From IMG/VR virus record IMGVR_UViG_2541047815_000004: a stretch of DNA of 48,720 nt; one strand, 5' to 3'. Shown here one piece after another: positions 2,618 to 43,944 of this stretch. The position numbers and the translations under genes were made by a program. The stretch is from a virus. Lineage: Duplodnaviria; Heunggongvirae; Uroviricota; Caudoviricetes. The notes under the pieces were generated by a model. That model was not told the DNA's origin, ran no database searches, and worked only from the letters and a program-made list of their open reading frames with translations. The stretch's first letter is position 1, and each line of letters begins with the position of its first letter.

Positions 2618-3208
2618 ATGTCTCGAATTTTTGCTTACTGTCGGATATCAACGCTGGATCAGACCACCGAAAATCAACGCCGGGAAATCGAAAGTGCAGG
2701 TTTTAAAATCAAACCTCAGCAAATAATCGAAGAACACATTAGCGGCTCAGCAGCAACCAGTGAGCGTCCTGGTTTTAACCGGTTGCTTGCTCGCCTGAAA
2801 TGTGGTGATCAATTGATTGTGACAAAACTGGATCGCCTTGGTTGTAATGCAATGGATATCAGGAAAACAGTGGAACAACTGACCGAAACAGGTATCAGAG
2901 TGCATTGCTTAGCATTGGGGGGCATTGACCTGACCAGTCCAACTGGAAAAATGATGATGCACGTAATTTCAGCAGTCGCTGAATTTGAACGAGACCTTTT
3001 ACTTGAACGCACTCATTCCGGGATAGTAAGAGCCCGCGGCGCAGGGAAACGTTTTGGTCGACCACCTGTGTTAAATGAAGAACAGAAACAGGTGGTATTC
3101 GAACGAATTAAGTCAGGTGTAAGTATAAGTGCCATTGCCCGGGAATTCAAAACCTCGCGGCAAACCATTTTAAGAGCCAAAGCAAAACTTCAGACACCTG
3201 ACATATAA
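2618..3208 (+). CDS. pinQ: Serine recombinase, DNA invertase of the Pin/Gin/Hin/Cin family, 196 aa
   Basis: N-terminal resolvase catalytic motif (YCRISTLDQ with the active-site Ser), C-terminal HTH; length and sequence match Pin invertases. Confidence 0.9.
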
Positions 3209-3305
3209 AAAATAATCTCGGTGTGAGATGCTTTACGTCTTCCAAGCCCCCTTCCTTGCCGTAAATGGAAAGATACATCTAATTATAGAATTTATATGTT
3301 TTACC

Positions 3306-3881
3306 CTACGGCAGTGCTGGCCATTCAATATCCTGTGCAGTTGACGTATCAACACGGTTCAGCAACACCCGATACTTTTTCCAGGCTTCCAGCAATGAGG
3401 TTTCTTCCTCCGTTGCGATTTCCAGATCTACAGCATCCTGAAGTGGCGCAATATGCTCACTGGCTACCTGCATCAGGCTGTTTTTTGTTTCTTCCGCCTC
3501 TCGGATCCGGAACAGTTTTTCTGCTTCTGCATCTTTCACCCAGGCTGTGCCGTTCCACTTCTGAAACTCCCCTTCCGGCGATAACCAGGTAACATTTTCC
3601 GGTAACGGACCGAGTTCAGAAATAAATAACGCGTCCCCTGACGCTACGTCATAAACCGTTTTACCCCGATGGTCTTCATCGAGATGCCACGATGCCTTAT
3701 CACTGTTGAAAACAGCCACAAAGCCAGCAGGAATATCTGGTGGTGCAATATCGGTACTGTTTGCTGGCAGACCTGTATGAGGCGGAATATATGCGTCACC
3801 TTCACCAATAAATTCATTAGTTCCGGCCAGCAGATTATAAATTTTTATGGTCCGTGGTTGTTCACTCATTCTGAATGCCAT
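3306..3881 (-). CDS. tfaQ: Tail fibre assembly protein (Tfa), 191 aa
   Basis: Immediately downstream of stf with a 1-nt stop/start overlap; sequence typical of lambda Tfa homologues. Confidence 0.8.
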
Positions 3882-28764: not shown

Positions 28765-28971
28765 CTTCATTTTCACTTTTTTAAATCCAACGACAGACGG
28801 CTGGCATTTAAGTATTGTGAAATATTATCAAATGTAATCATCATTGATTTACAAAAGATACATTTTGCCCCGAAAGGATTCATGTCAGAAACATCAAAAG
28901 ATGATGTTCTATACTGGGAACCATGACAACACGGGCATCTAAAGTGAATATGGTTTGTAATATTGTCTACC

Positions 28972-29184
28972 TCAAAGCGCCACTACATGAACAGCGGCAG
29001 GACCTTTAGGTCCGTTCTCAATACCAAATTCAACTTCCTGATTCTCAGTTAATGTTTTGAAATCGTTGCTCTGAATTGCTGAGAAATGGACAAACACATC
29101 TTTGCTGCCATCTTTCGGCGTGATGAAACCAAAACCTTTTTCAGGGTTAAACCATTTCACTAAACCAGTCATTTTGTTAGACAT
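28972..29184 (-). CDS. cspI: Cold shock protein CspA family, 70 aa
   Basis: Cold-shock-domain motifs KWFN..KGFGFI and VHFSAI; recognised as CspI. Confidence 0.9.
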
Positions 29185-29546
29185 AATTATTACCTTTTGA
29201 AGAAATTAGCCCTTGGGCAGAATGGTCCGAAAAAAAATATCAGAGAGAAAAACCAACAAGGAAATCTCAAGAGGTACAAATAATAAAATTATAACAATGA
29301 CTGCTTCAGATAAATTTGTAACAAACCAGAACACCATTAACGCATGATTAACCACCCATAGCAAGGATTACTTTTGTAAAGAAAAACACAGCAATGAAAG
29401 AATAGCTTTATTTATTAATAAAACGTGTCATTCTGATTAAGACCTTTTATCTTGCCCTTAAGATTTCAGGAATTTTGGCTCATGGAAGAGTCCTTTTTAT
29501 TTAAATTTTACATTCCGCGATGTAAATGTTCCGATTTAATATTACC

Positions 29547-32836: not shown

Positions 32837-33117
32837 GAGATTGTGGTGCTTTTTGTGGGAGTCATCCACTTACGCACTTTGTTTTGCGATGCCAGCAGTT
32901 AGCTTCTGCTGTGAAACTATTCATGCAGCAAACCTGCACTTCACCACAATGGTTAGCATACTTTTCCTGATTAAGATTTTGCCAAATATGCTAGCCATTG
33001 TTTCATGTATTGGACCTCCTTACTTTTTATTAAAGAGATCCAATATTCACTACTCTGTCCGTATCTCTACTCAGGCATCAGCCTTCTTCGTTATCGTATA
33101 CAGACGAGCGATGAATT

Positions 33118-33333
33118 TTAATCAGTAATGATGACATTTGCTGCTGCAGGACCTTTAGCACCACTCTCTATAGAGAAGGTAACCTTTTGACCTTCAAATA
33201 AGGTTCGATAATTATCATTCTGAATCGCAGAAAAATGCACAAACACATCTTTACTACCATCAACAGGAGAAATAAAGCCGAAACCTTTATCAGCGTTAAA
33301 CCATTTTACTAAACCAGTCATTTTATTTGACAT
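33118..33333 (-). CDS. cspB: Cold shock protein CspA family, 71 aa
   Basis: Cold-shock-domain motifs; recognised as CspB. Confidence 0.9.
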
Positions 33334-33633
33334 TCTACATTCCTTAACTTGAGCCTTTCGGCATAAATGGTTTGCATAACAGAAACGACTTCGTACTTAA
33401 TTGGAGAGACTCAAAGAAGGAATAAGTGAATAACACCTGAAATGAGAACTGCTTTAGTAAACTACTTCGTATATCGTCTGTTCTTCAAACCGACGCAATC
33501 ATTAACGCATAGTTGAACATATGAAGCAATGTTTATTTTAGACATCCAGCCATCTTCAACCCCATCAAAAAACTATAGCTTTCTTCAGGAACGTGTGTAT
33601 AGTGCGCCAAGTTATCAGTATTAAGGAATTTTT

Positions 33634-36429: not shown

Positions 36430-36681
36430 TTATTCTTCTGAAAAAGCAGAAAAGCCAGCTTTTATTCCGATCTCTTTCAATACCTGTAATGAAGTGACAA
36501 ACTCACCTTCGCGCAAGATAAATCCGTCCGTGACCCGAGCATCCACAAAATTAATTAACGCAGCCCCATTCTTTCGCAAACACAGAATGCGGTAATGACT
36601 AACAATGTTTCCATTTTCAACGCACACAGCATAGAGGCCATCTTCACAAAAAATTTTACGCAGTTCTTCGATGTTCATCAT
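36430..36681 (-). CDS. rem: Rem, small prophage protein, 83 aa
   Basis: Recognised from memory as Qin Rem. Confidence 0.7.
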   Translation of the reverse strand: MMNIEELRKIFCEDGLYAVCVENGNIVSHYRILCLRKNGAALINFVDARVTDGFILREGEFVTSLQVLKEIGIKAGFSAFSEE

Positions 36682-36794
36682 CAGAATCCTTCCGGATAAT
36701 TAGCTCTCCCCTTTAAGGGACCATCCCTCTTATCCCTGCGCGCTACTTAAGTATTTTTGATTCTATTCCGGCACCGTCCAGAACTTCAAACGCG

Positions 36795-36828
36795 TTGAAA
36801 ATAAAAACAAAAACCCGCCGAAGCGGGT
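36795..36828 (-). terminator. Strong intrinsic terminator with UUCG tetraloop downstream of hokD
   Basis: Minus-strand RNA AACCCGC-UUCG-GCGGGUU followed by UUUGUUUUUAUUUU. Confidence 0.65.
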
Positions 36829-36897
36829 TAAGTGCGGGTGCGTTGAGGATGCCTGCCACATCAGAGGTGGCGAGGGATTTCTCCCTCGCCGGGTCTC

Positions 36898-37053
36898 TTA
36901 CTCCTCAGGTTCGTAAGCTGTGAAGACAGCGACCTCCGTCTGCCCGGTTCGGATTCGTACCTCGCAGAGGTCTTTCCTCGTTACCAGTGCCGTCACTATG
37001 ACGGTTAAACAGATGACGATCAGGGCGATTAACATCGCCTTTTGCTGCTTCAT
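36898..37053 (-). CDS. hokD: Hok-family type I toxin, 51 aa
   Basis: MKQQKAMLIALIVICLTVIVTALVTRKDLCEVRIRTGQTEVAVFTAYEPEE; AAGGAG Shine-Dalgarno; in-frame upstream extension in the track ORF. Confidence 0.85.
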   Translation of the reverse strand: MKQQKAMLIALIVICLTVIVTALVTRKDLCEVRIRTGQTEVAVFTAYEPEE

Positions 37054-37516
37054 AGCCTGCTTCTCCTTGCCTTTCGGCACGTAAGAGGCTAGCCTACATG
37101 TGTCTAGCATGAAATTGGCCTCAGATTAATGTTAAGCGTCTTGCAGGACGCGTAATGTTAACTGGGGCTTTTCTCTATCTGCCGTTGGTGTTCATGCCCG
37201 AGGCAGATACGTCAGTGATTCAATACAACTATTGGGTATAGTTCCTCTGATTTTTTCTGTGGAAATGGGGCACAACCACTAGTCACCACCAGCACTTCTT
37301 TTAATACGCAAAGTCCGACACAAGCTAACCTTCTAGTCCGCTTTGAGCGAGGAACGGACGTTGTATAGGTTAGTTAGCGCATCCTCATGAATTGGTGTTC
37401 CTTAAGAGATTCATAACGAAGCGTTTGCATCGGCGGTAGTGTTTATAATCGGTATGAGCCCCCGAGAGGGCTCACATTTCAAATGTATTACGAGGTTACG
37501 CTCAATTAGAAACTTC

Positions 37517-39808
37517 TCATATGTTTCCGCGATAAATCACATTCAAAGCCCGTCGAGAGTAAGACATCAGTTCACCTGGCGTGATGGGTTCTGATGATGC
37601 CTGAGGGTTCGTGTCATGATGATAGCGACCAGCATAATTGTTAATTTCATTCAACTCAGGTACCAGTGATTTAGCGAAGAATAACGGATCGCTCGGTTGT
37701 GCTTGTGCAATCTGCGCTACTACCTCTCCAAACAGATTTCCCGGTGAAATTTGCCCCGGGAAACGACGATGCAGATACCCTTCAAGAAGCGGTCTGATCG
37801 CCACCGCCGTATCGTGAAGCTGATGATGAGCACCATCGGCAAATCCGCTCACCAGACGATGATTTTTATAGTAGGGAGATTCACATTCCAGATCGATATC
37901 TAGTTTATCCAAGCTACTGAAATCACCAGCAATGTTGACAATGCGTAAGGTTGAAATGTCCTGCATTTGAGTAGCAGGTATTTTCAGGAACTCATCTCGC
38001 ATGGTACGGATAAAGAACAGGTCGTGCGCCAAGATGATTACCTGCAAGCTGCGAAGGTAAATCTGTTTAATGATGGTGATTGTGTGGTTCCTGCGATGAT
38101 TGTCCAGACTACACATCGGATCATCAATCACTACAATTTTTCTCTCAAGATCAACGTCATGAAGCAACACTGAAATAAAGAATGCGAAGGCTAGCGTCCT
38201 TTTGTCCCCTTCACTCAATGAGCTCCGGAAACTGGATTCTTCTCCCGTTAGCGAAATCTTTTCCCCTCTAAGTTCAATTGCATATTCAGACTTAGGCTCA
38301 CCGCCGCCAGCATAGTTATAATTAATTTCTGTGATGCGAAAGCTTGCACCAAACTTCATCAATAAATCATTGATGGAGGATTGATACTTTCCAAGGGTCG
38401 AGTCCATGATCGCATTGAGTTCAGCCCTCCGTGTTTCCTTCAGTTCAGAGGCAACCACTTCAGCAGTTTTAGCGGTCTGATAATCAGAGATAAAACCTAC
38501 TATCTCAGGTGATAGACGAAGTCGTGTTGCTTCATACTGGGATAATGTAACCCGCAGGGTTTCTTCATTTTTGGTTTCAAGCGCCTCTTTATAAGCCTGA
38601 ATATCCAGATTGGCAGCTTCCACGCCCGAATTAAAGATAGAAAGCTCATCATTGATTGCAGTTACTGCATCCGCGATTTCTTTTTCATAGTCGCCTTGGG
38701 TCTTTGCAAGCGGATCGTTTTTCTTGGCTTCCGTTAAGCGGTTCAGCGATGATTGAAGACCTTCCAAACTAGCTTTAATTTTATCTAAATCAGGGAGACT
38801 CACGGGCAACTGGAGACAATCTTTCCAATTTTCAGTCACTAAACCAGCCTGCTCAATCTTGCTTTCAAGTAAGGCCAGATTGAAAACGCGCATGGCAGTC
38901 GCCACAACTTTATCTAGGCCTGTGACCTGATTAAGTAAGGCTTTGTATGCAAGATTAAACCGCTCCCGGTAGTACCGGATCAGTTCAATACCCTCCAGGC
39001 TTTGCGTACAGAAAGGACAATATTCGTCTTTTATATAATCAAGGCCGTTGCTCGCCCATCGCTCAAAACCTTCGACATTGATATGGTCAATATGCGCACA
39101 GACGACCTCTTCTGCACCCGCACTGAGGCTGTCATAGCTAGCTGCAAGAGTGGAAAAAAAAGAACTGAAATCAGGAGCGTAAAGAGGTAACGAAAGATAA
39201 CCCGTACGGTTGCGGATCGTCTCTATTCTTTTGCAGAGATCCAGTTCTGATTCGACTAATGCAATTTTTTCCTGAATGTTATCTTCCTGAACAGGCTTTA
39301 TGTATTTTGCTAGAGTTACATTCCCCCGGGCTACTGTCAGCTTTTCACTTGCCAGTCTCGTAACTCTCTTGGCCTCCTCTGCCTTGTCTGATGCATCAAT
39401 AAAAGCAGCCCTCGCGGCTACCGCATCACTGCCCAGCGCAAAACTCAGCAGTCGCTTTCTATGGCTAGCGCTGATTTCACCACCTGAGTAAACATTACGG
39501 TCAACAAAATCTAGGTCGAAGACGTGCACATCTGAATACTTACCATTCCATGTATCGTTATCGTAAATCGCACGATTTCCCTGCGAAAACTGCAGATGAA
39601 TATTTTGAGGGGTCGTTTCCCCAATCGTTTTCCTGTGCCGTACAATATCTGGATTTAATTCAGTGTAGGAACGCAGAATTGACGCAAGGGTGGATTTACC
39701 ACGCCCATTATCAGCATAGACAAAGGTCATTTTTTTAAAGGACATACCAGCAGGACGGATATCCTGGAATAAACCCACGCTGGTAATTTGATGAATTCTT
39801 TCAAGCAT
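37517..39808 (-). CDS. ABC/SMC-type P-loop ATPase with coiled-coil insertion carrying a CxxC motif and an unassigned C-terminal domain, 763 aa; candidate anti-phage defence protein
   Basis: Walker A ADNGRGKST (aa 32-40); about 500 aa predicted coiled coil with CPFC at aa 264-267; signature-like LSEGDK, Walker B KIVVIDDP, D-loop SLD and H-loop ILAHD near aa 530-610; about 150-aa C-terminal domain with RPLLE and HH motifs; AAGGGA Shine-Dalgarno. Confidence 0.6.
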   Translation of the reverse strand: MLERIHQITSVGLFQDIRPAGMSFKKMTFVYADNGRGKSTLASILRSYTELNPDIVRHRKTIGETTPQNIHLQFSQGNRAIYDNDTWNGKYSDVHVFDLDFVDRNVYSGGEISASHRKRLLSFALGSDAVAARAAFIDASDKAEEAKRVTRLASEKLTVARGNVTLAKYIKPVQEDNIQEKIALVESELDLCKRIETIRNRTGYLSLPLYAPDFSSFFSTLAASYDSLSAGAEEVVCAHIDHINVEGFERWASNGLDYIKDEYCPFCTQSLEGIELIRYYRERFNLAYKALLNQVTGLDKVVATAMRVFNLALLESKIEQAGLVTENWKDCLQLPVSLPDLDKIKASLEGLQSSLNRLTEAKKNDPLAKTQGDYEKEIADAVTAINDELSIFNSGVEAANLDIQAYKEALETKNEETLRVTLSQYEATRLRLSPEIVGFISDYQTAKTAEVVASELKETRRAELNAIMDSTLGKYQSSINDLLMKFGASFRITEINYNYAGGGEPKSEYAIELRGEKISLTGEESSFRSSLSEGDKRTLAFAFFISVLLHDVDLERKIVVIDDPMCSLDNHRRNHTITIIKQIYLRSLQVIILAHDLFFIRTMRDEFLKIPATQMQDISTLRIVNIAGDFSSLDKLDIDLECESPYYKNHRLVSGFADGAHHQLHDTAVAIRPLLEGYLHRRFPGQISPGNLFGEVVAQIAQAQPSDPLFFAKSLVPELNEINNYAGRYHHDTNPQASSEPITPGELMSYSRRALNVIYRGNI

Positions 39809-43891: not shown

Positions 43892-43944
43892 TTTCTGGTG
43901 ACGTTTGGCGGTATCAGTTTTACTCCGTGACTGCTCTGCCGCCG
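43892..43944 (+). ncRNA. dicF: DicF small RNA (ftsZ-targeting sRNA processed from the dicB operon transcript)
   Basis: Sequence TTTCTGGTGACGTTTGGCGGTATCAGTTTTACTCCGTGACTGCTCTGCCGCC followed by TTTTT matches DicF as recalled; between ydfC and dicB. Confidence 0.8.

Follow-up and report, generated by a model that had tools for sequence, protein, structure and literature searches.

In the hok/sok system of plasmid R1, the full-length hok mRNA is inert, with its tac element paired to the fold-back inhibition element (fbi) and its ucb element sequestering the mok Shine-Dalgarno (SD) sequence (PMC9841398). Slow 3' trimming removes fbi and lets tac pair with ucb, which opens the mok SD, and the opened mRNA is then either bound by Sok and subjected to RNase III decay or translated into Mok and Hok; the trimmed RNA is shielded by a stem-loop that follows the stop codon (PMC9841398). 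Saturation mutagenesis of the R1 locus has shown that one substitution at tac G4, C5 or T6 suffices to prevent the open conformation and thereby to remove Hok toxicity (PMC9841398). Enrichment of hok in prophages is documented (bioRxiv 10.1101/2025.08.07.668861), and chromosomal hok loci of K-12 have been reported to be inactivated by IS elements or by rearrangement (PMC12214031). Toxicity of Hok, its neutralization by Sok and killing upon decay of Sok have been established experimentally for R1 (PMC9841398) and likewise for hokW-sokW (PMC8621323) of the Stx2 phage 933W and the Sakai prophage Sp5, a demonstrated type I toxin-antitoxin (TA) system in which Sok has 71 nt of complementarity and which assists phage release (PMC8621323).

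The locus considered here lies in a Qin-like lambdoid prophage of E. coli, represented by the window, that is, the whole 48,720-nt stretch of DNA that was analysed. It descends from the hokD/hokW clade, and hokW-sokW is its closest characterised system, but it is without two components of a functional cassette, namely a hok promoter of its own and tac. Very probably, it is a hok/sok type I TA cassette of this clade, carried as prophage cargo and disabled by a deletion of 197 bp.

The likeness to the 933W system is extensive, comprising ~94% nucleotide identity from the hok 5' end to fbi, an in-frame mok/hok arrangement, an unusually long Sok, the same Sok -35 hexamer, identical ucb, SD and fbi sequences, and carriage as cargo of a lambdoid phage; the tac of 933W is that of the intact hokD alleles. 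933W differs in possessing a promoter (TAGAAT) and tac, of which the window has neither, in seven substitutions in the Sok region (six of which fall within or close to the Sok 5' recognition tail), in its terminator and flanking genes, and in its Sok -10 hexamer. Intact hokD-type alleles of other E. coli and of phage mEp460 (L003, L004 and L011) are identical or near-identical to the window over the retained locus and share the downstream rem-ydfU-Q genes, and L003 also has the same gene upstream; unlike the window, they retain the 197 bp with a small ORF, the hok promoter and tac. R1 (parB) shows the same order of elements, that is, promoter, tac, ucb, Sok target, mok SD, mok, hok, 3' stem-loop, fbi and terminator, and likewise has its Sok promoter embedded between the mok and hok starts. 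It is, however, plasmid-borne and serves post-segregational killing, its Hok protein is only distantly similar and its Sok hairpin is shorter, the hokD/hokW clade having an extra 16-20 nt, and the window locus departs from it in being without the promoter and tac.

The hokD gene of K-12 (relF, the third gene of relBEF in the cryptic prophage Qin) encodes an identical Hok protein and has a near-identical 3' UTR, with hairpin, fbi and terminator, followed likewise by rem and ydfU. Homology with K-12 nevertheless begins exactly at the hok SD, since mok, Sok, the Sok target, ucb, tac and the promoter are there replaced by relE, a limit that fits the reported inactivation of K-12 hokD by genomic rearrangement (PMC12214031). 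In the window, hok is not joined to relE, the upstream gene being an AAA_13 ATPase, and the locus is thus less truncated and independently damaged, with ~160 nt of leader retained together with mok and Sok.

Reading frames, 3' end and genomic setting

The original prediction of a hokD-type hok/sok type I toxin locus is borne out at the protein level. The toxin ORF (36898..37053, minus strand; 51 aa plus stop), identified from the ORF listing, Pfam, RefSeq neighbours and hokW mapping, encodes MKQQKAMLIALIVICLTVIVTALVTRKDLCEVRIRTGQTEVAVFTAYEPEE from the internal ATG at 37053, a small membrane toxin of the Hok/Gef family that matches Pfam HOK_GEF (PF01848) at 3e-23 (81.6 bits, cut-off 22); the identical product is annotated as HokD (WP_000813254.1) in near-identical RefSeq genomes, and the start and stop of 933W hokW map to 37053 and 36898. 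The ORF was also correctly described as intact, as it contains no inactivating mutation, and as having a good SD, AAGGAG at 37063..37068 (minus strand, read from the sequence), 9 nt before the hok ATG and overlapping the Sok -35 hexamer of the opposite strand. The 19-codon in-frame upstream extension, which had been suggested to be mok-like, is by sequence comparison the mok reading frame: the overlapping 70-aa frame (36898..37110, minus strand) consists of hok plus the N-terminal extension, the annotated mokW start of 933W maps to its ATG at 37110, and a mok SD of its own, GAGG, lies at 37122-37119, 8 nt before that ATG. The same shared-stop arrangement is annotated for mokC/hokC in K-12 and for mokW/hokW in 933W.

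The stop codon is followed by a stem-loop and then by an intrinsic terminator. The stem-loop, GGCGAGGGA-GAAA-TCCCTCGCC, has a perfect 9-bp stem at 36869..36890 on the minus strand, as judged from sequence, fold and allele comparison; it is the hairpin of the original prediction, which had quoted its plus-strand form with a TTTC loop. The terminator of the hok mRNA, AACCCGC-UUCG-GCGGGUU plus a U-run (36803..36829, minus strand; stem 36829-36812), was identified by terminator scan and fold, so that the predicted UUCG terminator is real. The hairpin does not belong to a terminator pair; it is, by analogy with R1, the counterpart of the protective terminal stem-loop of processed (truncated) hok mRNA, and the fbi element (CCTCAACGCACCC, 36836..36848, minus strand), here without its 5' partner, sits between the two. 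With a 3' UTR fold of -38.3 kcal/mol (z = -3.6 against shuffles) and a compensatory change in the stem, where the pair 36886-36873 is A-U in the window, G.U in K-12 and G-C in phage 933W, these 3' structures are more than chance. Rfam matches to isrK, rsmX and ceN48 in the region did not come close to their gathering scores and were discarded as fortuitous resemblance in hairpin-plus-terminator shape.

hokD is followed by rem, a small hypothetical gene, ydfU and the Q antiterminator, and genes for replication and immunity lie on its upstream side; the window also contains DicF and cspA-type leaders, and a Pfam search of Rem returned zero matches. The gene directly upstream of hokD, in the same orientation, encodes the 763-aa AAA_13 ATPase, where K-12 has relB-relE, and the ATPase matches the PADLOC candidate defence family PDC-S06 (7.4e-72). 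In other genomes the same slot is occupied by a DUF262 protein, an FRG-domain protein, QueH or Paa/AdfO; it is a variable cargo position. A conserved block at 37217..37355 (minus strand) travels with the hokD module and is common to loci with different upstream genes: identity with L004 begins near 37355 although the upstream genes differ. This block, which has zero Rfam matches, precedes a 29-aa small ORF in the intact alleles; this conserved, unannotated membrane ORF adjoins intact hokD loci.

The Sok homologue and the retained leader

The original prediction had expected a Sok-like antisense RNA without locating it, and a homologue can now be placed by sequence comparison at 37102-37172/8 on the plus strand, complete with a promoter. 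Its ends were transferred from annotated Sok RNAs through alignments of the locus with K-12 hokC, hokB and hokE, the R1-type plasmid hok and 933W. The K-12 RNAs sokC, sokB and sokE all map to the plus strand with a 5' end at 37102 and a 3' end at 37177 or 37178, and sokW of 933W, annotated at 71 nt, maps to 37102-37172 on the same strand, so that the SokD homologue is given as 37102..37178. The 77-nt candidate has the architecture of SokC, SokB and SokE, namely a single-stranded 5' tail, a long GC-clamped hairpin (37117-37170) and a UUUUCUCU tail, and it folds at -30.5 kcal/mol with z = -5.25.

The putative Sok promoter (37067..37095, plus strand), located by alignment, consists of a -35 TTGCCT (37067-72), a 17-nt spacer and a -10 TAGCCT (37090-95), with +1 at 37102. 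Their aligned counterparts are TTGCGC/TATCCT in the R1-type locus, TTGCCG/TAAGAT in sokB, TTGCCT/TACCAT in sokE and TTGCCT/TAACCT in sokW, and the alignment extends to the hokC Sok promoter region as well. The site scores 7/12 to consensus, which explains why it was overlooked both by the original prediction and by a standard sigma-70 scan of 36600-37600, in which neither a hok promoter nor the Sok promoter was found; given that a promoter located by homology scores so low, such consensus scans are uninformative for weak sites. Taken together, the sequence features point to a cis-encoded Sok gene over the mok start, with a promoter, a 5' tail and a terminator-like hairpin, and Sok is probably still made, as an orphan antitoxin.

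The promoter is not entirely unaltered. At base 37092 the Sok -10 hexamer reads TAGCCT in the window, as opposed to TAACCT in the intact alleles and 933W, and this is the sole window-specific substitution within the retained locus. The TAGCCT variant is nearly private to the deletion lineage, as it occurs in the same five genomes that carry the deletion junction described below and in three others; in one of the five, the final base of the Sok -35 is altered as well.

On the opposite strand, the retained hok mRNA leader extends over 37048..37209 (mRNA nt 14 to ~175), as delimited by Rfam RF01794 and folds, and holds the 5' stem TATCTGCC…GGCAGATA, ucb, the Sok target region, the mok SD and the GCCGAAAGGC hairpin. 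The RF01794 ("sok") match runs from 37214 to 37048 on the minus strand and, at 61.1 bits against a gathering score of 59, passes only marginally, as compared with the 112 bits reached by intact alleles; model positions 1-7 (GGGUGCU, the tac stem) are unaligned in the window. The match falls on the strand of hok and not on that of Sok because the model represents the hok mRNA in sense orientation, up to the hok AUG.

The ucb/anti-SD element AAGCCCC is retained at 37170-37164 (minus strand) and is predicted to be able to sequester the mok SD, with which it is paired in all folds of the window RNA; the pairing of GCCCCAG with CUGAGGC is present in minimum-free-energy (MFE) folds of intact and window RNAs alike, and the hok SD is partly paired in the window RNA folds. 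In contrast to ucb and fbi, which are both present, the tac that would complement them has been deleted. The tac/fbi end-pairing is seen in the MFE fold of the intact mRNA (414 nt), where nt 1-12 are paired with nt 375-387, and the tac/fbi duplex reaches -21.5 kcal/mol in eight of nine intact hokD/hokW-type loci (range across the nine, -18.5 to -21.5); the 14 nt that precede the junction in the window pair with fbi at only -3.4 kcal/mol. A search upstream of the junction for a substitute fbi partner gave a best duplex of -12.2 kcal/mol with large interior loops, and this candidate was rejected. As tac is invariant in all nine hokD/hokW loci, tac/fbi covariation is uninformative beyond conservation. 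MFE folding of a 3'-truncated intact mRNA did not reproduce the tac-ucb open form and gave instead a hairpin, metastable-like, between tac and downstream sequence; because the folds failed in this respect, the expectation that the window RNA is locked draws on the R1 literature and not on folding.

Loss of the mRNA 5' end

The comparison with the closest other genomes, strain WEC, which has the same ATPase gene upstream, and strain MB06171, which has a DUF262 gene there, locates the damage precisely. Aligned with L003 and L004, whose flanks are near-identical, the window is missing exactly 197 bp at the junction …CACTGACG|TATCTGCC… (37210|37209, minus strand). The missing segment comprises, in order, the 29-aa hydrophobic ORF, the hok promoter and the mRNA 5' end. 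The ORF, preceded by an AGGAGG SD, is unannotated and returned zero matches in a Pfam search; the promoter, found by promoter scan of L003 (1961-1989), is TTGGCG-17-TAGAAT; and seven bases downstream of it begins the mRNA 5' end GGGTGCTTGAGGC (tac, nt 1-13), a sequence conserved in R1-type hok, hokB, hokC, hokE, 933W hokW and P1-like loci. The window locus is consequently left with neither a hok promoter of its own nor a defined mRNA 5' end. On the sense strand upstream of the junction, zero promoter-like sites score 9/12 and there are only sites of 7/12, among them TTTCCA-16-AACTAT at 37265-37238.

The original prediction had proposed alignment with R1-type and chromosomal hok loci, and that comparison cuts both ways, in that it yielded the Sok homologue and the shared elements but also the absence of the promoter and tac. 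The regulatory elements have thus suffered a probably inactivating loss relative to functional hok loci, and the implied picture of an intact, canonically regulated locus is not supported, as the 197-bp deletion took the hok promoter and tac and the Sok -10 is substituted.

The frequency of the deleted state was determined with a 44-mer centred on the junction, which can match only across it; an 80-nt junction query had over-counted by joining the two flanks in intact genomes. The 44-mer occurs in five of 5,426 complete E. coli genomes (those from a dog, soil, a wild boar and a chicken, and NCTC9088), as against 1,582 of the same genomes that contain the intact segment (281-bp probe, coverage at least 80%), and phage mEp460 has an intact locus that shares 99.7% identity with L004, the intact reference allele. 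Given these numbers and the intact copy in mEp460, the state of the window is, by sequence comparison, a rare derived deletion and neither the ancestral form nor an assembly artefact.

The opposite direction, with the window as the original state and the 197 bp inserted in other genomes, is correspondingly almost certainly wrong. No clean direct repeat was found at the deletion ends or flanking the segment, where there is only the imperfect similarity of CTGACGAGACAGCCTC and TTGAGGCTATCTGCCTC, so that the junction alone gives no direction. The segment nevertheless supplies an mRNA 5' end that is conserved across the family, R1-type loci included, and that is complementary to the retained fbi; it occurs in 1,582 genomes as against five with the junction, and it has neither a transposase nor terminal repeats. 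That the deletion might be an error of assembly or sequencing is similarly next to inconceivable, since five independent complete genomes, which differ in host and country, share exactly this junction.

Probable consequences for function

Given that the hok promoter is absent, silencing is expected at the level of the transcript: a discrete hok mRNA would no longer be made, and transcription of hokD would depend solely on read-through or on a fortuitous promoter. Given that tac is absent, a translational lock is expected in addition, in that ucb would remain on the mok SD and any read-through RNA would be untranslatable. The retained Sok promoter would meanwhile direct synthesis of Sok in the absence of its target mRNA, leaving it as an orphan antitoxin. 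The killing function of the cassette would thereby be lost.

Against this reading stands that of a fully functional canonical module, as implied by the original prediction, in which the hok promoter would drive an mRNA that end-pairing keeps inert, that 3' processing activates and that Sok neutralises. Much of the anatomy would suit it, as the reading frames of the toxin and of mok are intact together with their SDs, and so are the Sok homologue, the 3' stem-loop, fbi and the terminator, and the RF01794 match still lies just over its gathering score. It is nonetheless extremely doubtful, because the promoter and tac are physically absent, which refutes it at sequence level for both elements; fbi is without its partner, the Rfam score is halved relative to intact alleles, and in R1 point mutations in tac are by themselves sufficient to abolish function (PMC9841398). 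More serious is the view that hokD is expressed from a distance, by read-through from the ATPase gene or from the promoter of the deleted small ORF, gated by Sok and serving some toxic or abortive-infection role. Read-through transcripts into hokD are plausible, as the ATPase gene is co-oriented with it and a scan of the 307-nt spacer between 37517 and 37210 detected no intrinsic terminator, the hairpin at 37453-37476 having no U-tract; an unnoticed promoter upstream of the junction may also exist, the 7/12 site at 37265-37238 being equally weak as the Sok promoter. Further, relBE and relF/hokD are co-transcribed in K-12 despite the greater loss of leader there (PMC3598666), the upstream ATPase belongs by its match to a candidate defence family, and the toxin ORF is identical to HokD. 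As an account of function, this view is still unlikely: ucb is predicted to stay on the mok SD when tac is missing, the hok SD is likewise partly paired in the folds, strain WEC pairs the same ATPase gene with an intact hokD so that the deletion is unnecessary for the adjacency, and evidence tying PDC-S06 to Hok amounts to none.

It is an improbable idea that the deletion has given the locus a new use, either with SokD as an orphan anti-addiction RNA or with hok under read-through from the PDC-S06 ATPase gene. SokD is perfectly complementary to the intact hokD loci of lambdoid phages such as mEp460, and if the former were true, it could dampen the Hok-assisted lysis or addiction that incoming relatives bring about; if the latter were true, a membrane toxin would be coupled to a candidate defence gene.

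On the preferred reading of a cassette disabled by deletion, inactivated chromosomal hok loci with an intact toxin ORF are a phenomenon already known, and there is nothing new in kind here. The 29-aa membrane ORF and the variable cargo slot may interest those who study prophage accessory genes, and exact coordinates are supplied for SokD, which genome annotation pipelines omit. The hokD locus of the window should be treated neither as a working TA system nor as a stub of the K-12 type, but as a third state, with mok, most of the leader and the Sok gene preserved and the promoter and tac lost. Small internal deletion is accordingly one more independent route by which a chromosomal hok locus can be inactivated while its toxin ORF stays intact.

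A hydrophobic reading frame within the deleted segment

Intact hokD alleles contain a hydrophobic 29-aa ORF, VLVLKCALAI[T/A]AVMAIYCLA[I/V]VL[M/T]DRLSD, which is preceded by a strong Shine-Dalgarno sequence (AGGAGG) and followed about 55 nt downstream by the hok promoter. The segment that carries it lies at 1812-2008 in the locus of strain WEC (L003) and at 3159-3355 in that of strain MB06171 (L004), is present in four further loci (L011, L012, L013 and L014), and is missing from the window at 37209/37210. The reading frame is uninterrupted even in copies of only ~90% identity. None of the listed genome records annotates a gene at this position, and a Pfam search with the 29-aa ORF returned no match.

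A conserved block some 140 nt long (window 37217-37355, minus strand) accompanies the hokD module regardless of the gene upstream; in the window the deletion joins it straight to nt 14 of the hok mRNA. An ORF, a promoter and an Rfam match were sought in this block, and none convincing was found.

Lesions of their own are also seen in other hokD alleles. In strain WEC the mok start codon ATG has become ATA (L003, ~2104), and in strain 20KM0223N (L001), one of the five genomes that carry the deletion, the Sok -35 element has changed from TTGCCT to TTGCCC at the equivalent of window position 37072.

RNA matches and the orientation of the sok model

The Rfam model RF01794 ("sok") describes the hok mRNA leader as read on the sense strand, with its consensus ending at the hok AUG, and its matches therefore mark the hok strand, opposite the real Sok RNA; the match in the window spans 37048-37214 on the minus strand. 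Within hok itself, on the same strand, the Tyr47 codon UAC lies in GCUUACGAA, at about 36915. Further matches above the Rfam gathering score in the window are the DicF sRNA (43893-43944, plus strand), two cspA-type thermoregulator leaders (33102-33494 and 28945-29330, both minus) and the IS009 RNA (3340-3538, minus), all of which are consistent with a Qin-like prophage.

The variable slot upstream of hokD

Directly upstream of hokD in the window, on the minus strand, is a gene for a 763-aa AAA_13 ATPase (37517-39808). The whole length of this protein aligns with PDC-S06, a candidate defence family in PADLOC (7.4e-72), and there are weaker matches to the ATPase regions of LmuB and PrrC. Just past the stop codon of the ATPase gene is a GC-rich 10-bp hairpin (37453-37476, minus strand) with no U-tract after it. 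The conserved hokD module starts near 37355, and the position immediately upstream of it (window 37360-39808; L004 1089-2882; L002 2347-2873; also in loci L013, L014 and L015) is a variable cargo slot, occupied, depending on the genome, by the PDC-S06 ATPase, a DUF262 protein, an FRG-domain protein, QueH, Paa/AdfO or relBE.
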